A DNA stretch of 32,000 bases from an uncultured archaeon. Lineage in GTDB: Archaea; Iainarchaeota; Iainarchaeia; Iainarchaeales; Iainarchaeaceae. The translations under genes were made by a program, and so were the position numbers. Below, piece by piece: positions 3,772 through 28,064 of the stretch (positions within the stretch are counted from its first letter, which is position 1; each line of letters begins with the position of its first letter). The stretch is from positions 119,987 to 151,986 of the forward strand of contig CAZNZM010000002.1 in the NCBI GenBank assembly GCA_964577555.1, in the 5' to 3' direction. Below the pieces are notes generated by a model. That model was given only the letters and a program-made list of their open reading frames with translations. It had not been told where the DNA came from and ran no database searches.

Positions 3772-4164
3772 TTACACCCAAGAGAAAATTACTTTGTTTA
3801 TGTCCTTGTTTTTTATTAGGGTGTTTCGCATGTTTATTATTTCTTCTGATTTGCCATGTAAGATAAAATTGTCTATGCATTTGTTTTCGTTTATGCATGA
3901 ATGATTTTGCCCGATTATTATTTTGTTGAATTTGTGTTTTGTTTCAGAGATGAATTTTTCTGTTTTCCGCGGGTGTATTGTTGATATTGTTGCGTTAGCA
4001 ATTCCTTTTATGGAATTTTCTTTGTTGATTTTTTCAAGGGCTATATTTATTGCTGCTCTAATTGCTTCTGAGTTGTTTGCGTGGCCCATTGCATTTTTGA
4101 TTGTTTGAAGTGCATCTATATTTTTATCCCCTAAAGAAATGCTGATTATTTTCATAAAAATCAA
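3772..4164 (-). CDS. NikR/CopG-family metal-responsive transcriptional regulator (ribbon-helix-helix plus ACT-like C-domain)
   Basis: The N-terminus KIISISLGDKNIDALQTIKNAMGHANNSEAIRAAINIAL is a typical RHH. The C-terminal half has the NikR-like His/Cys pattern (TIHP, TKH, NHSCINENKC). The true start may be the Met at 4155. It is divergent from a ZIP transporter operon. Confidence 0.7.
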   Translation of the reverse strand: MIFMKIISISLGDKNIDALQTIKNAMGHANNSEAIRAAINIALEKINKENSIKGIANATISTIHPRKTEKFISETKHKFNKIIIGQNHSCINENKCIDNFILHGKSEEIINMRNTLIKNKDINKVIFSWV

Positions 4165-5430: not shown

Positions 5431-5612
5431 TGATTTTTTTTGTGTTTTTTTTGTAAATTTTTATTTTTTAATTTGAAAATAAATTGCTTTTTTTTTGTCT
5501 TTTGTCTTGGTTAGCCAGTTTTTGCAATTTTATTTTTCTTTTTTTATTTTTTTGTTTTGTTTGTTTACAGTTTATCTTTAAATAGTTGTCTTTGTATTTA
5601 ATTATTTTAAAT

Positions 5613-5744
5613 GGGGTTATGGTGTAGCCTGGTCTAGCATACAAGCTTTGGGTAATCCTTTTCTTAAAAGCAGGTTTTTTTTGGCTTGTTTGGAGCCGGG
5701 ATTAAAAATAGCTTGCGACGGGGGTTCAAATCCTCCTAACCCCA
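5613..5744 (+). tRNA. tRNA-Pro(UGG): tRNA-Pro (anticodon UGG) with a 57-nt intron at the canonical 37/38 position
   Basis: Acceptor GGGGTTA/TAACCCC is perfect. D arm is GTGT-AGCCTGGTCTA-GCAT. The anticodon stem CAAGC (5642-5646) pairs with GCTTG (5711-5715), which is split by 5653-5709. The loop reads TT-TGG-G. T arm is GGGGG-TTCAAAT-CCTCC and the discriminator is A. Intron ends taatcc/ggatta can pair. No encoded CCA. Confidence 0.8.
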
Positions 5745-6109: not shown

Positions 6110-6138
6110 GTTGTATTTTTTGTTTTTTGTGTCTTTTT

Positions 6139-6678
6139 TTATATAATTTGTCCTAACAAAATTAGCATCAGTATTCCTGTTGTGTTGAGTAAAAATGATA
6201 TTATTGTAAAAAGTTTGTCCGAAATTTTTGTTGTTGCCAATAATGCTACTCCAATTTCATCTGGCAATGGCGATGCTATGATTAATCCTGCCATTATTGG
6301 AATTATATATTCAATTGTCCATTTTGGGAGCATTTCTCTTGCTTGTGCAATTATGTTTTCTTTAGCCAATGCGTGTATTTCGTCGTGAAATGAATGTCTT
6401 ATTATTTTGAATATTATTAAGTCTCCTATAAAGGCTCCGATTCCTCCGAGAATGGCTGTAAGAAAGATGTTGTGGGTTTCTCCAATTATGAGGAATATTG
6501 CGGTGGCTATGGCGGCAGTAAAACCGTATGCTATGAGTATTCCCCCTATGAATGCGCCTGAATAGCCTATTTTTGAAATTGATTCCCTCAAGCCTGAAAA
6601 GTATTCTTGTGTAATTAAAAAATATGCTAATATAAAGGTGATTATTAATAGAAATAGTTTTGGGTATTTGAATTTCAT
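6139..6678 (-). CDS. Multi-pass integral membrane protein, family not recognised
   Basis: 179-aa ORF with 4-5 hydrophobic helices rich in Gly/Ile (GAFIGGILIAYGF, ILGGIGAFIGDLIIF). Its A-rich coding strand is typical of - strand genes here. Confidence 0.6.
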   Translation of the reverse strand: MKFKYPKLFLLIITFILAYFLITQEYFSGLRESISKIGYSGAFIGGILIAYGFTAAIATAIFLIIGETHNIFLTAILGGIGAFIGDLIIFKIIRHSFHDEIHALAKENIIAQAREMLPKWTIEYIIPIMAGLIIASPLPDEIGVALLATTKISDKLFTIISFLLNTTGILMLILLGQII

Positions 6679-6968
6679 TAATTATTTGTTATGGGTATTT
6701 GTTATTAATTTTTTGTTTGTTTTTTTTGAACTTAGTCTAAAGTTGTTTTGTTTTTCTTTTTTTTGTTGTTTGTTTTGCAAGCCAAATCAGCATGTTTTTT
6801 TTATTTAAAATTCTGAATTTTTTTTGTTCTTTGTTTTGGCTAACTTATTTTTTTTGATTTTTTAAATCATTTTTTTAGATTAAATTTTATTTTTGCTTTT
6901 TATCGTCGTGATTTTTTTAAATTTATTTTTTTATTTTTTTCATGCGGTTTTTATTGAAAGAATTATTT

Positions 6969-7586
6969 TTAATTGTCTGTTTTTGTGTTGTCTTTTTGCG
7001 CTTTGTTTTTTTTCATGAATCCGATTATTTGCATTATTATTGTTATTGCCGCTATTGTTAATAGTGCGATTTCTGCTATGTTTAATCCTGTTTCAGAATT
7101 GGGGTTGATGCCGTTTGCTTTCATTACGAAATGCGCTAGGCTTAATATAAATGCAATATATACTAGTCTTTGGATTGTTTTCCAGTGTTTTCCAAGTTTT
7201 GCTACTGCCAAATTGTTTGATGTCAGAGTCATTATGGACAGAATTAGCATTGCTGGTATTGCTATTGCTAATTTGTAGTCTGTAATTATTTGGTTGAAGT
7301 CGTAGTCGTAATATTTTGTAATGACTATTAAATAATGTAGTGCTATGAATATGAATGCTGCTATTCCAATTGCTCTTCTTGGTTCTAATAATTGTGAAAA
7401 TTCTTTTGGGTTTATTACATAAAGCGGGCCTATTATTAAAGAGATGCACAGCAAGTAAAATCCGCTTAGTGCCAATGTTCTTGTCATTGTTATCATTGGC
7501 GATGGCACTTCGATTAACGAGTTGTAGTAGGATATTATGGCTATTCCTGTAAGTGTGATTAACCATAGTTGGCTTTGTCTGTTCAT
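6969..7586 (-). CDS. Ferric-reductase-like / MsrQ(YedZ)-like heme-b membrane protein
   Basis: 205 aa with about 6 TM helices. Conserved-looking His sit inside helices (IFIALHYLIV, ILSLAHFVMK) and an RRAIGIAAF segment is typical of the ferric reductase transmembrane domain. It lies directly downstream of apbE in the same orientation. Confidence 0.65.
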   Translation of the reverse strand: MNRQSQLWLITLTGIAIISYYNSLIEVPSPMITMTRTLALSGFYLLCISLIIGPLYVINPKEFSQLLEPRRAIGIAAFIFIALHYLIVITKYYDYDFNQIITDYKLAIAIPAMLILSIMTLTSNNLAVAKLGKHWKTIQRLVYIAFILSLAHFVMKANGINPNSETGLNIAEIALLTIAAITIIMQIIGFMKKNKAQKDNTKTDN

Positions 7587-19646: not shown

Positions 19647-20372
19647 TTAATTTGATTTTTCTGCTTTTTTGTTTTTCCATGTTTTTCTTTCTCCTAAGTC
19701 GGCAGAGTTGTTTCTCAAGTGCTTTGCCACGATGCTTGCTGCTCCGACAACTGGTTCAAGATCGTCCCCTTTTGGCAGAAAATTTATTTTTTGATTTTTG
19801 ACTTTTAATGGAGCCCCGTCAACTATTATTTTTGCATCTACTACTATACTTGAAAGCATTTCTGATATTTTTTCAATTGCATCTGCTTCTATTTGATTAA
19901 GGTTTTTTCCGTTGTTTCTTGCAAGGTCTATTGCTTTTGAGTTTATTGCAAATGAAACCGAAGCCAGCATTTTTTCCGACACGATTTTTTCTTTTTTTGG
20001 AATGTCTTTTGTCTTTTTGCTGTCTCTTAATTCTCTCATAGAATTTGTATCTGCCAGAACCCCTGTAATCACCATTGGCCCTGTTCTTTCTCCCCTGCCT
20101 GTTTCATCAATGCCTATTATAAAATCCTCTTTGAGCCCGAGCATTGAAAGTATTTCCTCTTTTACTTTAGTGGCTTCGATTCCTTGTATAGAAAGTTTTC
20201 CTGAATTGTATAATGTTATTGTGCACCCCATGTGTCTTGCCCTTTTTTCTTCAAAGTAATTTGTTACTTCAGCCTTTTCGTAATTTGACATTATTTCCTT
20301 GATCTTTTCTTTTTCATTTATTCCGAAGTTAAGAGTTTCCTGCATGTTCTTCACCCATGATTTTATTTTCAC
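19647..20372 (-). CDS. Type 2 RNase H with an RNase HIII-like N-terminal (DUF3378/TBP-like) domain
   Basis: The N-terminal CTITLYNSGKLSIQG matches the RNase HIII N-domain signature. The catalytic core has GIDETGRGERTGPMV, RDSKK, IIVDG and VVGAASIVAKHLRN. The start is uncertain (20372, 20345 or 20291), and 20372 would overlap truD by 44 nt. Confidence 0.75.
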   Translation of the reverse strand: MKIKSWVKNMQETLNFGINEKEKIKEIMSNYEKAEVTNYFEEKRARHMGCTITLYNSGKLSIQGIEATKVKEEILSMLGLKEDFIIGIDETGRGERTGPMVITGVLADTNSMRELRDSKKTKDIPKKEKIVSEKMLASVSFAINSKAIDLARNNGKNLNQIEADAIEKISEMLSSIVVDAKIIVDGAPLKVKNQKINFLPKGDDLEPVVGAASIVAKHLRNNSADLGERKTWKNKKAEKSN

Positions 20373-21369
20373 ATAACGCTTTTAATGACTTGACAAGGAT
20401 TGTGGCATAGCAACCTTTTCTGAGTTTGAATTCCAATACGCAATTTTCTTCAAAAAAAGTTGTTTTTGGTTGTTCAGCTTTGAAAAAAGTTTTTCTTGTC
20501 AATTCTGTTTTGGCTGGAAAAATCGGAGGTATTATTATGTTTCTTTTTATTCCATGATGACTGAATTTTATTGGAAATTTTTTTCCTGAAATTTCTATTT
20601 GCGGTATTTCTTTTTTGTTTTGCTTTTCTATTAAGCTTTTCAGTTTTAAATTGAATTGCATTGCTTGGCTTGCCTTGCATGCAATTGAAACCGATTTTCT
20701 TTCAAGCAGGTTAATGCAATCTTTAAAGTTTTTCCCGTTTTCTAATTCTTTGAAAAATATTTTTTTTGTTTCTGGAATTTTTTTGTTTTTTAAAATTTTT
20801 TTCCAGTTGCCCCAATTGTTTTTAATGTATTCTTTTATGTTTTTGGATTTTTCAGTTTCAAAACAGTCATGGTTTGTAAGTATTTCTTTTGCAGCAGCTT
20901 CATAATTTTCATTTACCAGTAATTCTCCTGCTTTTATGCTTTTACCGTGGAATCTTTGTTCGTCAAAATAATTTGGAAAAGTTTCATGTTTAAGGATTTT
21001 CGGAATAAGAGTTTTTTCTTTTTCGCTTATTTTTGAAAGTTTTATAATGAATTTGTTGGCAGTGTGCATTCCTACAAAAATTCTTTTGTTTGAAGCGCCA
21101 ACGTATTCCAAATTTATTCTTTCGTCGTTTGGTTCAGCCAAGTATTTTTTTGAGCATATCCATTGAATTGACGTTGATTTTGCATCTTTTAATCCGGAAT
21201 AGTATATAGCTGTTTTGTTTTGTTTTCCAATTAATTTTATTGCGTTTGAAGAATCAATGCCAGATTTTTCCAGTATATAATATTTGTATTTCCCGTTGTT
21301 GTTTTTTTCAAGTTTCAAATCAAGTATTTCTTGGACAATAAAATTTGATTCGTTTTTTTCAAATAGCAT
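20329..21369 (-). CDS. truD: tRNA pseudouridine synthase TruD/Pus7 family
   Basis: N-terminal FIVQE, catalytic-Asp motif SGLKDAKSTSIQW (GxKD..a.T.Q), PNYFDEQRFHG and C-terminal KGCYATILVKSL follow the TruD order. Confidence 0.8.
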   Translation of the reverse strand: MLFEKNESNFIVQEILDLKLEKNNNGKYKYYILEKSGIDSSNAIKLIGKQNKTAIYYSGLKDAKSTSIQWICSKKYLAEPNDERINLEYVGASNKRIFVGMHTANKFIIKLSKISEKEKTLIPKILKHETFPNYFDEQRFHGKSIKAGELLVNENYEAAAKEILTNHDCFETEKSKNIKEYIKNNWGNWKKILKNKKIPETKKIFFKELENGKNFKDCINLLERKSVSIACKASQAMQFNLKLKSLIEKQNKKEIPQIEISGKKFPIKFSHHGIKRNIIIPPIFPAKTELTRKTFFKAEQPKTTFFEENCVLEFKLRKGCYATILVKSLKALCENKIMGEEHAGNS

Positions 21370-21487: not shown

Positions 21488-22642
21488 TTGGCTAATTATA
21501 ATGTTTTGAAATCATTTATTTTTTTTGGTTTTGTTGGTTTTGTTTTTGTAATTTTTTTAGGTGCTATCTTTATAATTACTAATAAAGAAAAAATTATAAT
21601 TTCAGAAAGTCCTAATTCCCAGAAAAATAGCGGTTTGGCAAACGATGTTGAAATTGAAAATTTGAAAAGCAAGGTTGTTTTTCTTGAAAAAGAAAAAGAT
21701 GAATTGATTGCAAAGCAAAGAGAACTAGAGCAAGAAAATAAATCTTGTTCTGCTGAGTATTCTGATTTATTTGCTGATATTAATGTAACTATTTATGAAT
21801 TAAACCGCAGGGAGCAATTAATAAGAAGTTCATTAAATTGGTTTAAAGAAAATTCTGATTTGAAAAATATTGTGGATGATTCTTATAGAACTATTTTGAA
21901 TAGGTATTGTTTTAAAATTTCAGATTCAGATTGTAAGTTGCATTTAGGTTGTTTGTATTTGATAAACGAAAAAGAATTCAGATTATATTATAGAAACGAT
22001 AAAAATTCTGATAATAATGGTGATCAGCTTTTTAATTTAAAAGAATTTTTGTCTAGGAAAGGCGGGGATTGTGAAGATTTTTCTCTTTTTTTTAAAGCAG
22101 AGGTTAATGAATTTCTTAGAGGATGTGGCGACGTAGAAAATAAAAAAGTTAAAATGCTGACTTATGCTGATTGGAAAAAAGGATTTGGAGAATATGAAAC
22201 TCAATTTTTTTTGGATTTTTTGGAAAGAAATTGGTATATTCCTCAAGTAAATCGCATATGGTTGGATGATTATAAATATCCTGTTGTTGTCTGTGGCAAC
22301 ATGTATGATCTTCAATCGAAAAAGGTGAACGGGCATTGTATAATTGCTTTGCTTAAAAACAAGCCAATTGACAAAAATTCTTTGTTTACTGAGCTTAATA
22401 ATTCTCCTTTAATCGAACCTCAAAGCGGAGAGTTTGTCGGTTATTTAAATTCTGCTTCGTCAAATATATTATTAAAAGACGAGTATGTCGGTGATGAAAA
22501 TTCTTCAATAACTTCAATTATTACTGATGAAGACTATTTTTTGTATGATAATTTCACAAGTCCACATTGGATTAATTATTCATTTTATTTGGAAAGAATT
22601 ATTAAATCAAAAAGCGAATTGGAGGAATTTCTTTCTGAATGA
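21488..22642 (+). CDS. Membrane-anchored coiled-coil protein with a transglutaminase-like Cys-His core
   Basis: TTG start with aaggtg 6 nt upstream; there is no in-frame ATG until far downstream. It has an N-terminal TM, a coiled coil (LKSKVVFLEKEKDELIAKQRELEQE), then GGDCEDFSLFFKA (nucleophile Cys context) and VNGHCIIAL (His). Confidence 0.55.
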   Translation: MANYNVLKSFIFFGFVGFVFVIFLGAIFIITNKEKIIISESPNSQKNSGLANDVEIENLKSKVVFLEKEKDELIAKQRELEQENKSCSAEYSDLFADINVTIYELNRREQLIRSSLNWFKENSDLKNIVDDSYRTILNRYCFKISDSDCKLHLGCLYLINEKEFRLYYRNDKNSDNNGDQLFNLKEFLSRKGGDCEDFSLFFKAEVNEFLRGCGDVENKKVKMLTYADWKKGFGEYETQFFLDFLERNWYIPQVNRIWLDDYKYPVVVCGNMYDLQSKKVNGHCIIALLKNKPIDKNSLFTELNNSPLIEPQSGEFVGYLNSASSNILLKDEYVGDENSSITSIITDEDYFLYDNFTSPHWINYSFYLERIIKSKSELEEFLSE

Positions 22643-22808
22643 AGCATTTTTGATTTGTTTATTTTTTTTGTCCATCAGTTCGAACCAGTTTCAGCATCTT
22701 TTCACATCTTAGCTTTCTCTTTGTCATCATCGGACGAATATTCTTTGTTTGGTTTGTTTTTAAATATTTATTTTTATTGTCTTTTGCGGTTTTTTTTAGC
22801 AATTTTTT

Positions 22809-23219
22809 TTAGTTTTGTTTTGGCATTTTTTCTAATTTGAATTCTATTGTATCGTTGTTTTTTGGCATAATGCTTGAAACTCCCTTGTCTGAATATTTTC
22901 CATTGACGTATATTGCGATGTATTCGTTGTTATTTGGTTTTAATCCTTCTATTTCAGTTATAAATGCGCCGTAGGTGTATTTTTTGTAATTAAAATTCAC
23001 GCCTGATTTCAGAAGCATCTCAAAAAGGTTTTGTTCTTTTTTGTCGACAATTTGTTTTTCAACAATTGTTTTGTTTTGGGAGTCAATTATTTTCAATTTA
23101 ATTTTTATGGTGTCGCTTGTTGGGTTTAACTGCGAGGCGTTATTTTCTTTGTTTTCTATTTGTATACATCCGTTTGCTAAAATAAGAAGTAGCAGTATTG
23201 CAATGATTTTTGTTTTCAT
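22809..23219 (-). CDS. DUF4430-family lipoprotein (transcobalamin-like small-molecule binding fold)
   Basis: Signal peptide plus lipobox (LILANGC). The C-terminal pattern YGAFITEIEGLKPNNNEYIAIYVNGKYSDKGVSSIMPKNNDTIEF matches the DUF4430 signature (YG.fI..I.G......W.y.VNG.....G......GD.i.f). Confidence 0.7.
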   Translation of the reverse strand: MKTKIIAILLLLILANGCIQIENKENNASQLNPTSDTIKIKLKIIDSQNKTIVEKQIVDKKEQNLFEMLLKSGVNFNYKKYTYGAFITEIEGLKPNNNEYIAIYVNGKYSDKGVSSIMPKNNDTIEFKLEKMPKQN

Positions 23220-23746
23220 AGTTCCAACCTTAGCGTGACAATTGTGTTTTTTAAATTTGAAAGTGCGGTGTTAATTTCTTTTGATGCTTGCATGTCAAGG
23301 AATGGCGATATTATTGTAATTGCAAAAATTCCTGATATTAAATGCATTATCGTGAATGGTATTTGCATTATTATTGTTGTAAGAAGGTCTTGTTTGAATA
23401 TTATTGTGCTCATTCCCGGGCCTGTTATGATGTCAAATAGGAGTATTCCGAATATTCCGCGTGTGACAAATAATTTTAACCCGGGTTTTTTTCTTTTCAT
23501 TTCTAAATGCAGTATTAGTGCTATTATGGCATATGTGCTGCTTGTTACTATTGTCCAAATTCCTATTCCGCTTGTAAAATAGTCAAAGACAGCCATTGTT
23601 GTGAATGCGAATGTTGGTGCTTTCCACCATTTTTCGTTTTTTGCCGCAGGAACTACAAATCCTATTATTGGGTCGGAGTTTGGGAATATGTGTAAGAACC
23701 TGTAAATGTTTGAAATAATTGATCCTATTATATATTTTGGCGTCAT
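23216..23746 (-). CDS. Multi-pass membrane protein, possibly an ECF-type S-component
   Basis: 176 aa with 5-6 TM helices. It overlaps the DUF4430 gene start by 4 nt, and DUF4430 genes commonly pair with ECF S-components. The assignment is by context, not motif. Confidence 0.4.
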   Translation of the reverse strand: MTPKYIIGSIISNIYRFLHIFPNSDPIIGFVVPAAKNEKWWKAPTFAFTTMAVFDYFTSGIGIWTIVTSSTYAIIALILHLEMKRKKPGLKLFVTRGIFGILLFDIITGPGMSTIIFKQDLLTTIIMQIPFTIMHLISGIFAITIISPFLDMQASKEINTALSNLKNTIVTLRLEL

Positions 23747-24007
23747 AGTTTATTATGAATTTTTTAGTGGTGTTGTGTTTAAATTTAGTTTGCAAGCCAA
23801 ATTTAAATTGGTGAATTATATTACTTCTTCTATCAATTTTACAAATTCTATTAGTTTTTCTTTTTCTGTTGGTGTAATATTTTTGGCTTCGATATATACT
23901 GTTTGTGTGTCTGGGTCTATTGCTATTATATTGTAATTTGTTTGATTTTCTGATTCGTTGATTAGAGTGTAGGAGTTGTTGCCTAATGGGTTGTCTTCTT
24001 TTTTGGA
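23419..24007. repeat. Left copy of a segmental direct repeat flanking the Fic/Doc cassette
   Basis: It matches 25267-25670. It covers the 5' part of gene 23216..23746, the spacer, and the last about 64 codons of a copy of gene 25479..26207. Confidence 0.85.
23816..24007 (-). pseudogene. Truncated duplicate of the 3' end of gene 25479..26207
   Basis: The encoded KKEDNPLGNNSYTLINESENQTNYNIIAIDPDTQTVYIEAKNITPTEKEKLIEFVKLIEEVI is identical to the C-terminus of the full gene. Identity stops at 24007 and no N-terminal part is present. Confidence 0.8.
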
Positions 24008-24091
24008 TGTTCTGGCGAAATCGCACTCCAAAAATAAAGAAGGTTGATGTTTTCACGAAAAAGCAAAATGTCAAAAAATTCTGACACGTAG

Positions 24092-24184
24092 TTTAAGCTA
24101 ACAATTTTTATGGTTTTTGTTAGCCTAAAAGAACAAAATTGCAAATTTAGGCTAACTATTTTAAATAACTTTGTTAGCCTAAAA
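24092..24184. promoter_or_regulatory. Two tandem 54-bp units, each an 11-bp inverted repeat GTTAGCCTAAA with a 16-nt spacer, ending 5 nt before the Fic/Doc ATG (candidate operator)
   Basis: Half-sites are tttaagctaac (24092-24102, inverted, 1 mismatch), tttgttagcctaaaa (24116-24130), tttaggctaac (24146-24156, inverted) and tttgttagcctaaaa (24170-24184). A TATA-like ttttaaata lies at about 24159-24167. Confidence 0.5.
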
Positions 24185-24189
24185 TCAAT

Positions 24190-25137
24190 ATGAAGTTGCG
24201 TATAAAAACAATTCATGGAAAAAAATATTATTACTTGGATTTGGGCTATCGTGTTTTAGCCAAATCAAAAACATTTAGCAAATATGTTGGCACAAAAAAG
24301 CCAACAAAAAGCGAGTTGGAAAAGATTGAACAATCCTTTAGAGAGGAAATAATTTCAAAACTTTCTGGGAAGGATTACTCTTGCAAATTCATTTCAAAAG
24401 ATGACTTGATAAAAGCATTGCTTTTCAAAGATGCATTTAACAAGAAGTTTGCTTCTCTTTCAAGTGTTCAAAAGAAAAAGTATGAAGTTGACAGCACAAT
24501 CCTTTTCACGCTAACCACGCTTACAACGGAAGATGTTGATGTTAGCCTTACTGATGTAAAGCAAGCATTTGAGAAAGAAACCAAATTGAGCATGCGGGAA
24601 CAGATTAGTAAAAACATGCTTAAAGCGGTTGAATCAATAAAAGAAAAACATGTTTTAAACAAGCAATATTTGCTTGGATTGCATAAGATAATAATGGCAA
24701 GTTTTGAAGGAAAAAGCCCGGGAAAAATAAGGTGGAGACAGGTCTACTTGCAAAAAAGAGACGAAAAAAATCTTTTGGGAACGGAAATTGATTACAGGCC
24801 GCCGCATTACAGCAAAATTGACAAATTGCTTGACGACTTTGTAGAGTGGTATAATAAGACCTTGTTAAATCCAATTGAAAAAGCATCACTGGCACATTAT
24901 AAGCTATACAAAATCCATCCATTTCTTGACGGCAATAAAAGAATATGTCGGCTTATATTAAACAAAACGTTGATTGATGAAGGCTTTCCTTTGTTGAATA
25001 TTTCAGCAAAAAAGGAACAATACTTTCAAACATTAATTGATTCTATTGAAAAAGATTCGCCAAAAAAATTAGCTGAATTCACGTTGAAAGAATATTTCGG
25101 GCAAATAAAGGAATTTTTGAGCTCAAAAAGTAAATGA
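24190..25137 (+). CDS. Fic/Doc-family protein with a Doc-like variant of the active-site motif
   Basis: The core motif HPFLDGNKRICR (24916-24951) matches HxFx(D/E)GN(G/K)RxxR. An upstream helix FTLTTLTTEDVDVSL aligns with the (S/T)xxxE(G/N) inhibitory helix region. The coding strand is A-rich, unlike every other + strand gene outside the island. Confidence 0.9.
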   Translation: MKLRIKTIHGKKYYYLDLGYRVLAKSKTFSKYVGTKKPTKSELEKIEQSFREEIISKLSGKDYSCKFISKDDLIKALLFKDAFNKKFASLSSVQKKKYEVDSTILFTLTTLTTEDVDVSLTDVKQAFEKETKLSMREQISKNMLKAVESIKEKHVLNKQYLLGLHKIIMASFEGKSPGKIRWRQVYLQKRDEKNLLGTEIDYRPPHYSKIDKLLDDFVEWYNKTLLNPIEKASLAHYKLYKIHPFLDGNKRICRLILNKTLIDEGFPLLNISAKKEQYFQTLIDSIEKDSPKKLAEFTLKEYFGQIKEFLSSKSK

Positions 25138-25266
25138 TGAATTATTTTTTGGTGCATTATTCTTGCTTTTTGCTTGCTTTTATGGCACTGCAATGAAAAT
25201 TGCGGATTTGCTAAAAATTGTGCTAAAATTGTTCAAAGGGAAACCCATTTTTTTTTGACTATTGCT

Positions 25267-25393
25267 GGCCTGTTATGGCGTCAAATAGGAGTATTCCGAA
25301 TATTCCGCGTGTGATAATAGTTTTAAGCGGGTTTGCTTGTCACTATGTTTGGAATAATTGATCAATTGACCCTATTATATATTTTGGCGTCAT
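25267..25393 (-). pseudogene. Internally deleted fragment of a copy of gene 23216..23746
   Basis: It retains ggcctgttatg..gtcaaataggagtattccgaatattccgcgtgtga and the start region atgtttg.aataattgatc...cctattatatattttggcgtcat, but lacks the middle of the gene. Confidence 0.7.
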
Positions 25394-25670
25394 AGTTTAT
25401 TATGAATTTTTTAGTGGTGTTGTGTTTAAATTTAGTTTGCAAGCCAAACTTAAATTGGTGAATTATTAAATTGGTGAATTATATTACTTCTTCTATCAAT
25501 TTTACAAATTCTATTAGTTTTTCTTTTTCTGTTGGTGTAATATTTTTGGCTTCGATATATACTGTTTGTGTGTCTGGGTCTATTGCTATTATATTGTAAT
25601 TTGTTTGATTTTCTGATTCGTTGATTAGAGTGTAGGAGTTGTTGCCTAATGGGTTGTCTTCTTTTTTGGA
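25267..25670. repeat. Right copy of the segmental direct repeat flanking the Fic/Doc cassette
   Basis: It matches 23419-24007 with four kinds of difference: an internal deletion of about 210 bp (equivalent to about 23491-23704), a 7-nt insertion (aattgac), a 16-17-nt tandem duplication (taaattggtgaattat), and a few substitutions. Confidence 0.85.
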
Positions 25671-26207
25671 ATTGACAAATTGGGCAAGCCATTTGTTTTT
25701 TTCATTTTCAATTTTTTCTATTGCTTTTTCGTTATCTGGCATTTCTATAATGTTAAAAGCGATAATGTTTCGATTCATGGTATCGTATATTTTTCTTATA
25801 AAGCAGTTTGCACTCGCATATGTAGTGCCTGGTTTTAATGTTGCTTTGATTACTTGGTAGTTTTCTCCAAATAGTTTTTTTGCTTGCTCTATTATGAGTT
25901 CGTTGTTGCAAATGTAGGGTCTGGTCATTACTTTTTTTGTTTCTATTTTTGGTGGTAAAATTAATGGTGGTTCTTTTTTTTTGTCTGAATCGGTTGGCGG
26001 TTTGTCATTATTGTTAGGTTTTTGTTGTGGTTGTTGTTCTTTTTTTTTGAAATCTACGCAACCCAATGTAATGGTTGTCAAAATAACAATTATAACTAAA
26101 ATTGTTGCAATTATTGTAAAATTGTTGTTTTCAGCAGGTGTTAAACTTCGCCCGTTGGCCATAAGTTGATGATTGTTAGAACGGTTTTTTAAGTTGTTTG
26201 TTCCCAA
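25479..26207 (-). CDS. Lipoprotein / membrane-anchored protein with a Pro/Lys-rich linker, family not recognised
   Basis: It has a TM plus lipobox (IIVILTTITLGC) and a linker QQPQQKPNNNDKPPTDSDKKKEPP, then a globular domain. The probable start is the Met at 26162 (MANGRSL). Its 3' end is duplicated at 23816-24007. Confidence 0.7.
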   Translation of the reverse strand: MGTNNLKNRSNNHQLMANGRSLTPAENNNFTIIATILVIIVILTTITLGCVDFKKKEQQPQQKPNNNDKPPTDSDKKKEPPLILPPKIETKKVMTRPYICNNELIIEQAKKLFGENYQVIKATLKPGTTYASANCFIRKIYDTMNRNIIAFNIIEMPDNEKAIEKIENEKNKWLAQFVNSKKEDNPLGNNSYTLINESENQTNYNIIAIDPDTQTVYIEAKNITPTEKEKLIEFVKLIEEVI

Positions 26208-26212
26208 AGTAA

Positions 26213-26640
26213 GGAAACTTCGATGTGATCGTCAAATCAAAATTCAACGAAAACTGGGAGTTCTTTTCCTTTGACATCTCTAAAATAGACAACGTTTCGG
26301 AATGGCGCAAGATAATCGAGGACGCGCTTGTCACCCGCGAGGTCGAATTGAGAAAATTCGGCGAGCGCATGAAAAACAAGACTATAAGCTAGGAATTCGA
26401 GAACATCAAAACCCAAAGCATCTGAAACCAGACGTCAATGGAAACAACAGCCTGAAATTGATACAGGCGCAATTGGACATCCACGACGAATACCTCAAAC
26501 GCACTGAAGCAAAACTCGACGTGTCGTTACCGGAATTCGCCATGATAAAGGAACGATCCGCCACAAACCGCTGGCTCATCGGACTGCTAATCGTCGCGTT
26601 CTTCGGCCTTGTCGGAAGCCTTGTGCTTAAATTAATCTGA
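26213..26640 (+). pseudogene. Decayed gene for a coiled-coil protein with a C-terminal TM anchor (phage XhlA/DUF1640-like architecture, speculative)
   Basis: A protein-like reading GNFDVIVKSKFNENWEFFSFDISKIDNVSEWRKIIEDALVTREVELRKFGERMKNKTIS ends at the TAG at 26390. EFENIKTQSI then ends at a TGA. The sense continues in another frame as LKLIQAQLDIHDEYLKRTEAKLD...NRWLIGLLIVAFFGLVGSLVLKLI. GC is much higher than in the flanks. Confidence 0.45.
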
Positions 26641-26662
26641 ACAACAAAAGAGAGAAACAAGA

Positions 26663-26821
26663 ATGTACGACATCAAAAAAACCGCAATGAAAGGATTCTA
26701 AATATTCGCGTTCGGAGGAATCGGCTCGCTCATAGCATACCTTTCGGACTGCCAAGCGAACCAACGATCATTCGCTGTCACGGGCCTCAAGATGGCGGAA
26801 AACTACCTCAAAAACCGCTGA
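26663..26821 (+). pseudogene. Small membrane protein gene interrupted by an in-frame TAA
   Basis: MYDIKKTAMKGF-TAA(26699)-IFAFGGIGSLIAYLSDCQANQRSFAVTGLKMAENYLKNR. The hydrophobic segment continues straight across the stop. Confidence 0.4.
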
Positions 26822-26915
26822 CAAAAAAAATGCAAAGCGATTAAAAAACAAAGCAACCACAAATTTACGCGGGCCGCATGAAGAAGTTAACACCTTCTGA
26901 TTTCCAAAAGGGAAA

Positions 26916-26939
26916 ATGATGAATTAACTCAACTCTGAG
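26916..26939. repeat. Left arm of a 24-bp inverted repeat bracketing the LemA/GIDE-like module
   Basis: atgatgaattaactcaactctgag. Its reverse complement matches 28956-28979 at 23 of 24 positions. Confidence 0.8.
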
Positions 26940-27017
26940 GGTCCGCAATTTTCTTGTGACTATATAAATTGGCAGGAAAATAGGTAGCCATCTCCCAGCA
27001 AAAAGACACCATATTTT

Positions 27018-27491
27018 ATGGGTTTTGATATATTTCAACTGTTTATGATTAATCACAAAGGTTCGTTGGTTCCTTATAGACTCCAAGTAATATTGGCTGT
27101 CATAGTAGGCATAGGTGTTACTGTCCTTGTTATTGGGATGTTTGGTTTTGCCATATATGAAATGCTTGGGTTAAATTTGATTTATCAACAAACTTTTACA
27201 AATAGTGCACATGTAATAATCCCTGATGATGCTTACTTTAGAGCCAATTCCAGTACACTTGAATTGAGGATACAATCTAACAACCTCGGCACTTATACTA
27301 CGGAAGTTGTTGCGAATGGGCAAAAATATTCTCAGACTAGAACGGTAAAATACAAAGGCTCTGCCAAGAATCGGAGTTTAGATGACACGGTTTTGATTTT
27401 GGATATTAATAAAACAAAAGAATTTGACATATCTATAAGTCCTTTATCTACCCAAATATTCAAGCTTTATGTCTATGAGAAGAAATGGTGA
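27018..27491 (+). CDS. Membrane-anchored protein of unknown function
   Basis: 157-aa ORF with one TM (VILAVIVGIGVTVLVIGMFGFAIY) and a beta-rich ectodomain. Balanced A/T usage, unlike native + strand genes. Confidence 0.55.
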   Translation: MGFDIFQLFMINHKGSLVPYRLQVILAVIVGIGVTVLVIGMFGFAIYEMLGLNLIYQQTFTNSAHVIIPDDAYFRANSSTLELRIQSNNLGTYTTEVVANGQKYSQTRTVKYKGSAKNRSLDDTVLILDINKTKEFDISISPLSTQIFKLYVYEKKW

Positions 27492-27512
27492 CATTGAAAG
27501 GAGGTTATCGAA

Positions 27513-28064
27513 ATGGTTGTTGAACTTGTTGTCGGCACAATAGTTTTTTAGGTGCAACTTGGTTTATGGTTTCATATAATGGCTTTATCCAACTTAAGAA
27601 TAAGATTGATAATTCTTGGAGCCAAATCGATGTGCAACTTAAGAGGAGATTTGGCCTAGTCCCAAATCTAGTTGAAACTGTGAAGGACTACACGAAACAC
27701 GAAAAGGGAACACTAAAAGCGATAACTGTTGCAAGGGCTGTAATCCTGATATCCGGTTCCCAAAAGGAACAAATTGAAAATGAGAACTTGCTTACTAGGG
27801 CACTCAAGTCCCTGTTTGCAGTCTCTGAATCTTACCTAAATCTTAAAGGCAAACCAGAATTTTATCTCCATGCAAGAACAACTTTCTGAAATTGAGGCAA
27901 AGATTGCTTCTGCAAGACAGATGTACAATGACGCAGTGATTGCATTCAATATTAAGGCAGAAACCCTACCAGATAACCTGATTGCCGGAACATTTGGTTT
28001 CAATAAAAGGTACTACTTCCAAATAGATGAAATCGTAAGGTCAACTGTGAAAGTGCAATTCTGA
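27513..28064 (+). pseudogene. lemA: LemA-family protein gene broken by two compensating frameshifts
   Basis: aaggagg lies 9 nt before the ATG at 27513. MVVELVVGTIVF then hits a stop. The next frame reads LGATWFMVSYNGFIQLKNKIDNSWSQIDVQLKRRFGLVPNLVETVKDYTKHE...LKSLFAVSESYLNLK. The original frame resumes as ANQNFISMQEQLSEIEAKIASARQMYNDAVIAFN...FGF. All three pieces match the LemA consensus in order. Confidence 0.85.

Follow-up and report, generated by a model that had tools for sequence, protein, structure and literature searches.

The window analysed here is a 32,000 nt stretch of DNA from an uncultured archaeon of the Iainarchaeota (GenBank assembly GCA_964577555.1, contig CAZNZM010000002.1, positions 119,987 to 151,986). 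It contains a gene for a Fic family protein that lies between two directly oriented copies of a host segment. The segment is derived from two adjacent genes, here named L, which encodes a lipoprotein-like protein, and M, which encodes a membrane protein for which a Pfam scan returned no match (Table 1). A horizontally mobile cassette with Fic as its single gene has entered between L and M, which are arranged tail to head, and the insertion came with a 589 bp direct target duplication. Each host gene has kept one intact copy with its native flank, and the truncated copies, L' and M', face the insert.

Table 1. Features of the Fic insertion locus (window coordinates)
Feature	Position	Strand	Description
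M, membrane gene, intact	23216-23746	-	Open reading frame (ORF), 176 amino acids; upstream of a DUF4430 gene (22809-23219)
Left copy of duplicated host segment	23419-24007		589 nt; 5' 328 nt of M, 69 nt M-L spacer (23747-23815) and 3' 192 nt of L
L', truncated duplicate of L	23816-24007	-	Last 63 codons and stop; 100% identical to 25479-25670
Inserted segment X	24008-25266	+	1,259 nt; Fic cassette flanked by 48 nt (5') and 129 nt (3')
Small upstream palindrome	24069-24086		TGTCA-N8-TGACA, read from the sequence; folds as a hairpin
Palindrome 1, putative operator	24092-24130		TTTAAGCTAAC-N-GTTAGCCTAAA; same position in most cassette loci scanned
Palindrome 2, putative promoter and operator	24146-24184		TTTAGGCTAAC-TATTTTAAATAAC-TTTGTTAGCCTAAA; wraps a TATA-like box (24159-24168)
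Fic gene	24190-25137	+	315 amino acids; class II Fic fold; motif HPFLDGNKRICR; N-terminal three-stranded sheet and helix
Right copy of duplicated host segment	25267-25670		Decayed M fragment (M', 25267-25336, then a gap), 8 nt insertion, spacer with tandem duplication, 3' end of L
L, lipoprotein-like gene, intact	25479-26207	-	242 amino acids from a TTG start; 227 amino acids as called by the Joint Genome Institute (JGI) from 26162

Self-comparison of positions 22500-26800, refined by piecewise alignment, revealed three colinear direct repeats. The longest is 205 nt and exact (23803-24007 and 25466-25670, 205/205), and the other two pair 23717-23819 with 25364-25466 (98% identity) and 23419-23469 with 25267-25317 (94% identity). 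An exact repeat of 205 nt is far too long to be expected by chance. Positions 23724-23801 are identical to 25371-25448 (78/78), and 23706-23723 match 25345-25362 at 17 of 18 positions. The leftmost part of the repeat was misplaced by both MAFFT and global alignment and was re-aligned on its own; this part, 23419-23488, differs from 25267-25336 by five substitutions and small gaps. Relative to the left copy, the right copy has lost approximately 210-217 nt (23489-23705), has 8 additional nt at 25363-25370 and carries a 16 nt tandem duplication at approximately 25449-25464.

A previous examination of these letters alone, the sequence-only reading, had reported a direct repeat with the same boundaries, and the self-comparison confirms it. 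Its description of the two sides, an intact M with a truncated L on the left and an M fragment with an intact L on the right, agrees with the ORF positions. The sole supported gene in the 1,259 nt between the copies is the Fic gene, identified by Pfam (PF02661), as had been claimed for an interval of about 1.26 kb. The deletion of about 210 bp and the tandem duplication in the right copy were also correctly described, and the insertion, given as 7 nt, is 8 nt. Apart from small numbers of this kind, the earlier description is correct.

The open frame of L' continues into the insert as far as 24031, and the resulting 71 amino acid ORF (23816-24031) was called as a gene by JGI. A 30 nt palindrome, TTTAAATTTAGTTTG/CAAGCCAAATTTAAA, is present in the L-M spacer at 23778-23807, with a copy at 25425-25454, and may be a terminator or promoter element common to L and M. 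The 16 nt tandem duplication of the right copy begins directly after this palindrome.

The empty site and the direction of change

The closest homologues of M are all in syntenic loci, here L091 and L092 (86% identity), L093 (74%) and L094 (59%). The corresponding L orthologues are 81-85% (L091, at 81%, and L092), 50% (L093) and 34% (L094) identical to L of the window. In each, the L orthologue is followed by a spacer of 46-68 nt, M and then a DUF4430 gene, and Fic is absent; the exception is L094, where the gene downstream of M has no DUF4430 match. In L091, positions 5473-4266 are colinear with window positions 22804-24007, with 24007 as the exact last position of homology. On the other side, 25345-26144 aligns with L091 4565-3786, and the insert is absent from all four loci. 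The empty site that the sequence-only reading had suggested looking for is thus found in four relatives, and the arrangement that would have spoken against an insertion, a Fic gene without flanking repeats in related genomes, was not encountered in them. Because four related genomes have the empty site, the single-copy arrangement without Fic is ancestral, and the insertion and duplication are derived.

With L091 and L092 as outgroups, differences between the two copies could be polarized. All three indels of the right copy, together with several of the substitutions, are absent from the left copy and from both outgroups, and are therefore derived in the right copy. This bears out the earlier view that it was the right copy, and not the left, that had acquired the indels.

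Base composition also sets the Fic gene apart. The AT skew of the coding strand ranges from -0.26 to -0.03 in native plus-strand genes and from +0.09 to +0.49 in minus-strand genes, and is +0.19 in the Fic gene, which is on the plus strand. A GC-rich ORF at 26302-26640 (GC 0.48) is a second plus-strand outlier, so the earlier remark that Fic is A-rich on the plus strand, unlike all native genes there, stands with one other exception. The skew supports the view that the Fic gene is foreign and not adapted to its strand. Across the whole window, the plus strand has more T than A and more G than C whatever the orientation of the genes, and cumulative GC skew rises monotonically. Native plus-strand genes have T-rich coding strands, and minus-strand genes have very A-rich ones.

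The Fic cassette and its relatives

The Fic protein matches PF02661 with E = 1.4e-18 (67.9 bits against a cut-off of 24), and an AlphaFold model (pLDDT 92) has a class II Fic fold. The best Foldseek matches in the PDB were FICD/HYPE, SoFic and BtFic (probability 1.0, TM-scores 0.54-0.64). The motif HPFLDGNKRICR is invariant in 34 homologues, and differs from HxFx(D/E)GNGRxxR in that K replaces the second G. This K-for-G variant (GNKR) is of the Doc type. AMPylation and phosphorylation (kinase chemistry) are both possible. An invariant T110-L-T-T-E114-D ends the helix formed by residues 92-113, with D where the (S/T)xxxE(G/N) motif has G or N, and this TxxxE(D) sits where class II Fic proteins carry the inhibitory glutamate.

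Ahead of the Fic fold, the AlphaFold model has an N-terminal module (residues 1-59) of a three-stranded sheet and a helix. A known DNA-binding domain was considered for this module and rejected, as it has no Pfam match and no significant fold match in the PDB (best E = 0.4). Among defence profiles the best match was PADLOC SoFic (E = 1.2e-25), confined to profile positions 68-257 of 361, and NCBIfam SoFic gave 34 bits against a cut-off of 550, so the protein does not have the full-length SoFic architecture. Apart from Fic there is no sense-strand ORF of at least 40 amino acids within 24008-25266 that could encode a partner antitoxin; a 46 amino acid ORF (25174-25314) runs into the right repeat. 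The protein is probably an auto-inhibited Fic/Doc-type enzyme of the toxin or (SoFic-like) abortive-infection defence kind.

Searches returned 261 Fic homologues at E < 1e-5, and the best 120 share 58-87% amino acid identity with the window protein. They are from Micrarchaeota, Aenigmarchaeota, Iainarchaeota/Diapherotrites and unclassified archaea, many on contigs of 1-2.5 kb. Close relatives were found neither in IMG/VR (at most 37% identity) nor in the INPHARED phages and PLSDB plasmids (at most approximately 40% over partial matches). We retrieved approximately 30 Fic loci from species-representative genomes and metagenomes. In these, M, L and DUF4430 never adjoin Fic, and the neighbourhoods are unrelated and differ from genome to genome.

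Conservation of DNA sequence with other cassettes is limited to approximately 24056-25130, which covers the small palindrome, the two larger palindromes and the gene. The conserved content of the cassette is thus an operator, a promoter and Fic only. The cassettes in loci L009 and L012 are 92% identical and their flanks are unrelated. Those in L010 and L012 are 87% identical, while their syntenic host flanks share 65-70% and are inverted relative to the cassette. Both pairs indicate movement of the cassette independent of its host.

Two further observations concern cassette borders. A candidate case of one identical Fic protein in several contexts, P0063, was rejected, as the 17 contigs that carry it always have the same neighbourhood, with MazE-PIN upstream and GIY-YIG nearby (L184-L188). 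Five of 10 P0063 contigs start 45-540 nt upstream of Fic or stop approximately 100 nt downstream, and these assembly breaks at the cassette borders hint at presence/absence polymorphism or at repeats there. In L009, positions 1141-1199 contain a solo left end of a cassette, with palindrome 1 (81% identical to 4000-4058) followed by the dispersed repeat described below and no Fic; this could be the remnant of a cassette that was lost or excised.

The promoter region is arranged alike across cassettes. Palindrome 2 begins at -45 in nearly every locus and is centred on a TTTAAATA-type TATA box approximately 27 nt before the ATG, and palindrome 1 is found at about -81 to -99 in most loci. The arms of palindromes 1 and 2 change together between lineages, giving the types TTAGGCTAAC, TTAGGCTGAT, TTAGGTAGAT, TTAGGCAGAT and TTAGGCGCAT, with arms that include GGCTAAC, GGCTGAT, GGTAGAT, GGCAGAT and GGCGCAT. 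Four half-sites that lie upstream of the transcription start and change in concert are what a dimeric DNA-binding regulator co-evolving with its cassette would produce. Because the cassette encodes one protein only, the simplest inference is that the Fic protein probably represses its own cassette. The co-varying palindromes point to a putative DNA-binding role of the N-terminal module. Among the cassette lineages nearest to that of the window, the small palindrome is kept in the form TGTCC-N8-GGACA (the window was compared with L007, L013 and L027).

To find flanking duplications, the upstream stretch from -85 to -600, counted from the ATG, was compared at each locus with the first 500 nt after the stop codon, and cross-locus pairs served as the control. 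The 99th percentile of the control score was 14, and 8 of 21 loci scored at least 15. L010 and L012 were removed from the count, leaving 6/19 loci above the control (P about 2e-8). The repeats flanking these two cassettes are not target duplications, as they belong to an intergenic repeat, similar to tRNA 5' fragments, that is dispersed in Aenigmarchaeota.

Several of the duplications are at the ends of RNA genes. In L015 and L022, repeats of 15 and 18 nt, respectively, correspond to the 3' end of tRNA-Glu, with the cassettes in opposite orientations. The 12 nt repeat in L020 is at the 3' end of tRNA-Thr; its score of 12 equals the 95th percentile of the control, and it was counted for its position. 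A 31 nt repeat in L007 overlaps the 5' end of a C/D-box small RNA (sRNA; Rfam sR1, E = 0.008, below threshold). The 38 nt repeat of L013 is in the interior of a putative C/D-like sRNA, and the 21 nt repeat of L052 is at the probable 3' end of another; in both, the box motifs were read by eye and there is no Rfam match. L052 scored 13, below the 99th-percentile cut-off, and is outside the six. L018 and L024 have repeats of 18 and 25 nt, respectively, and no flanking repeats were found in L175 and L176.

The repeats are locus-specific, with no core common to different loci, and the spacing from repeat to repeat is uniform at 1.1-1.3 kb. Just inside them, there are no terminal inverted repeats and no conserved motifs or element ends across the loci examined. 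Duplication length varies, being 12, 15, 18, 21, 25, 31 or 38 nt elsewhere and 589 nt in the window. With its long duplication, the window thus appears to stand at one end of a recurrent pattern, in which the cassette contains Fic alone, the target duplication differs in length and neighbouring genes are intact.

Other repeats near Fic genes were noted. The dispersed repeat (about GAACCAAACCATCAGCCNAGCACAGCTACGAACCC and CCAAGCTAGACTACGAACCC) is found in L008 (1107-1140, 2120 and 2907), L009 (1213 and 3954), L053 (1140), L010 (5733, 5872, 7035 and 7050) and L012 (5646, 5718, 7019 and 7208). It is always on the strand of Fic, resembles reverse-complemented tRNA 5' fragments, and brackets Fic and neighbouring genes in a manner that gives the look of a cassette array. 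An intron-containing tRNA is present in L012 at 5541-5665 on the minus strand (Rfam, 45 bits). In L014, a 103 nt hairpin-rich direct repeat (4-106 and 7249-7351, 99% identical, 7.2 kb apart) was considered as an element boundary and set aside, as it encloses an intein-containing CDC48 gene as well as Fic and resembles a miniature inverted-repeat transposable element.

Possible routes of insertion

Single-crossover integration, familiar from suicide-vector genetics, gives duplications of hundreds of bp and leaves both genes intact. As we know of no other process that routinely yields duplications of this length with both genes whole, we infer a single homologous crossover at L-M. Circular or end-joined DNA of approximately 1.7-1.9 kb would have carried the cassette and a fragment of this very locus, the fragment coming from a sibling or closely related cell. 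Host homologous recombination would then have made one crossover within the shared segment (Campbell or 'ends-in' integration), with no need for a recombinase encoded by the element, and recombination between the copies could release the same circle. After integration, the tract comprising the 3' end of L and the spacer would have stayed identical or been homogenized by gene conversion, and M', cut off from the long homologous tract by the indels, would have decayed. The cassette would be a self-contained expression unit, with two palindromic operators straddling the TATA box. We hold with moderate confidence that a foreign cassette entered L-M in this way, its 589 bp duplication made by a Campbell-type crossover of a circle with a host fragment, and that it is a self-contained, auto-repressed defence or toxin unit. 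Of the routes considered, this one best accounts for a duplication of 589 bp.

The sequence-only reading had already proposed a Campbell-type integration or duplication scar. Its topology and direction of change are supported, as is the foreign origin of the cassette; the circle and the homologous crossover are one possible mechanism, and an illegitimate duplication-insertion would give the same topology.

Several observations weigh against Campbell-type integration. No circular or excised form was seen, and short Fic contigs have no terminal overlap, apart from one that is considered below. Campbell-type integration does not account for how the host fragment first came to be joined to the cassette. 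No match in the window or any retrieved locus was found for the outermost 48 and 129 nt of the insert, which contain no convincing ORF or RNA. The 12-38 nt repeats elsewhere, often at tRNA or sRNA gene ends, look more like att sites or target-site duplications than products of homologous recombination, and the 12-18 nt duplications of tRNA 3' ends (L015, L020 and L022) are below the length for ordinary homologous recombination. The cassette family may thus move by another route, with the window a special case.

The divergence between the copies is a further difficulty. Three sites in 23419-23488 have the outgroup base in the right fragment and a derived base in the resident, functional M, as in the change of codon 106 from GCC (Ala) to ATC (Ile). 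Divergence is uneven, at 5/68 in the M part and 1/284 elsewhere (Fisher P = 0.001), and the chance of finding 0/205 differences at 7% divergence is 3e-7. With ancestral bases retained in the M fragment but not in the resident M, and an L fragment identical to L, the two copies do not have a single uniform history, and the picture drawn by the sequence-only reading is too simple in this respect. Gene conversion of the long uninterrupted tract, with M' isolated by its indels, is one possible explanation and a diverged mosaic donor is another; integration by a single crossover demands one or other as an extra assumption.

A one-step illegitimate duplication-insertion is a possible route, though we consider it somewhat unlikely. 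Here, a nascent strand, or staggered breaks on sister or polyploid copies, would have captured the cassette, with synthesis resuming 589 bp upstream. The final topology would be identical with no circle or homologous crossover, the length of the duplication could take any value between 12 and 589 nt, and neither conserved ends nor a recombinase would be required, as observed. Either orientation of the cassette would be allowed, as seen at tRNA-Glu in L015 and L022. However, the many insertions exactly at the ends of tRNA or C/D sRNA genes are left unexplained, as is the efficient spread of an identical cassette across DPANN phyla.

A site-specific recombinase acting in trans would account for those insertions at RNA gene ends but not for the locus in the window. 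The cassette would then be non-autonomous and att-flanked, in the manner of a cis-mobilizable element. The repeats would be attL and attR, and in other genomes they are indeed tRNA-Glu or tRNA-Thr 3' ends or parts of C/D-box sRNAs (some putative), which are classic integrase targets; in addition, the relative L094 has an integrase-bearing provirus adjoining L. On the other hand, a 589 bp duplication that spans two protein-coding genes is no att site, the repeats lack a common core between loci, and the two tRNA-Glu insertions are in opposite orientations. The ORFs of the 32 kb window that were scanned contain no integrase or transposase domain, which accords with the earlier statement that no integrase is present. 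We regard this explanation as doubtful.

It is improbable that the assembler produced the structure by threading a free 1,663 bp circle (insert, M', spacer and D1, where D1 is the 205 nt exact repeat) into an empty L-M site. The window is part of a 149,383 bp JGI metagenome contig (sample 3300037501, Ga0394875_0000113), and both this contig and the 152 kb NCBI version run through both copies. Identical sequence was found in two other samples, 3300043177 and 3300043267. In 3300043177, a 35.9 kb contig (L004) ends at 23929 and a 1,712 bp contig (L002) spans 23881-25592. Together they contain three of the four junctions, and they do not by themselves set the phase. They break off exactly 127 nt into each copy of the 205 nt repeat, which is the break pattern of a k=127 de Bruijn graph at a repeat with two entries and two exits. 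These breaks at the repeat borders are what a mis-phased assembly has in its favour, as the graph fits either phase. We considered whether L002 might itself be a circle, and its 49 nt terminal overlap is explained as a k=127 assembly-graph edge.

The third sample, 3300043267, speaks against mis-phasing. Its 1,360 bp contig L006 corresponds to 25115-26474, connects the 3' end of Fic, by way of M', the modified spacer and the repeat, with unique L sequence and what follows it, and has ends that are not at repeat borders. A 1.66 kb replicon without a replication gene would also be unlikely to persist. L006 and the long contig favour the integrated phase; the evidence for this assignment of junction phase is contigs assembled from three samples, as opposed to reads.

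The cassette might alternatively represent a new kind of autonomous mobile element. The one protein that it encodes, with a palindrome-specific N-terminal DNA-binding module and a Fic nucleotidyl- or phosphoryl-transferase, would itself promote integration and excision or recruit host repair, leaving target duplications of variable length, preferentially at tRNA and C/D-box sRNA gene ends. We think this very unlikely. There is little chance that the cassette is a classical transposon and the repeats target-site duplications made by its transposase: direct repeats of local sequence do flank the cassette in several genomes, but Fic is the only gene of the insert, a transposase is lacking, terminal inverted repeats and conserved ends are absent, and the duplication has no fixed length, all of which contradicts a classical transposon. 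That Fic was ancestral at L-M and lost from relatives is barely credible, given four empty-site lineages at 84-65% DNA identity, each with a single clean spacer, duplicated fragments that only an insertion explains, and the foreign composition of Fic.

Overall, the feature is real and its topological reading is right; Campbell-type integration is a plausible mechanism.

Neighbouring features and known systems

Beyond L, the block at 26000-28000 is atypical, with a GC content of 0.39-0.41, compared with approximately 0.32 elsewhere, and a positive AT skew. The relatives differ there, with HsdM in L091 and a provirus with integrase and terminase genes adjoining L in L094, and the block looks like a variable hotspot. 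The LemA gene is in two overlapping ORFs, 27566-27889 and 27870-28064 (Pfam LemA positions 1-83 and 86-149), and is probably a frameshifted pseudogene or the result of a sequencing error. On the other side of M, a single gene for TruD of 346 amino acids (20329-21369) corresponds to two ORFs in L091, the closest relative (6113-7136; 215 and 137 amino acids). Between a 384 amino acid ORF and the DUF4430 gene, 22669-22775 on the minus strand (core approximately 22673-22731) is a probable C/D-box sRNA gene, with a terminal stem, C box GATGATGA, D box CTGA and, further upstream, a TATA-like box; the Rfam match to sR52 has an E value of only 0.18. This stretch is 94%, 88%, 85% and 77% identical in L091, L092, L093 and L094, respectively, which exceeds the conservation of the flanking genes.

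DPANN archaea have tiny genomes, and little is known of how they acquire genes. Here, a toxin- or defence-type gene with its own operator-promoter crosses DPANN phyla as a 1.1-1.3 kb unit that encodes no recombinase. The window is an unusually informative intermediate, as it combines a 589 bp target duplication with an empty site preserved in relatives. If host homologous recombination or another repair route suffices, defence genes could spread simply, without classical mobile-element machinery, and this would also explain the assembly breaks around the Fic gene. Because the copies have diverged unevenly, gene conversion can be approached directly in an archaeon that has not been cultivated. 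The kinds of structure involved, namely insertion-duplication scars, integrase-less cassettes and Fic defence or toxin genes, are known. A conserved, recombinase-less, DPANN-wide Fic cassette with its own operator and variable target duplications appears to be undescribed in the literature searched.

The closest mechanistic parallel is Campbell integration of a suicide vector. In both, a contiguous host duplication flanks the insert, each gene has one intact and one truncated copy, no recombinase is supplied by the element and the structure is reversible via the copies. The event in the window differs in being natural, in an uncultivated DPANN archaeon, and no donor circle was seen. Moreover, its copies diverge unevenly, and related cassettes have much shorter duplications.

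Cis-mobilizable elements and integrase-less, att-flanked islands are, like the Fic cassette, small and without a recombination module, and in several genomes the cassette shares with them direct repeats at tRNA or small-RNA ends. In contrast, the Fic cassette has no shared att core, its orientation varies, no helper was identified, and the repeat in the window is 589 bp of protein-coding DNA.

Two groups of Fic proteins are comparable. SoFic is a single-gene abortive-infection AMPylase (PMC12249575; bioRxiv 10.1101/2022.05.11.491447). The Fic protein of the window lacks the SoFic C-terminal domain, has an unrelated N-terminal beta-sheet module and carries K for the second G of the motif, and its gene is not followed by an evident small ORF for an AS1-type antitoxin (PMC12249575). 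It shares with SoFic the Fic fold, a putative N-terminal inhibitory-helix region and a single-gene architecture, and SoFic was its best PADLOC profile. Compared with Doc of Phd-Doc and with TIGR02613, 'mobile mystery protein B', it scores under the curated cut-offs, has no Phd or mystery protein A partner and is much longer than Doc. Nonetheless, it has the GNKR motif seen in Doc, matches both profiles weakly (E = 0.0068 and 5e-7, respectively) and, like them, is associated with mobile DNA.

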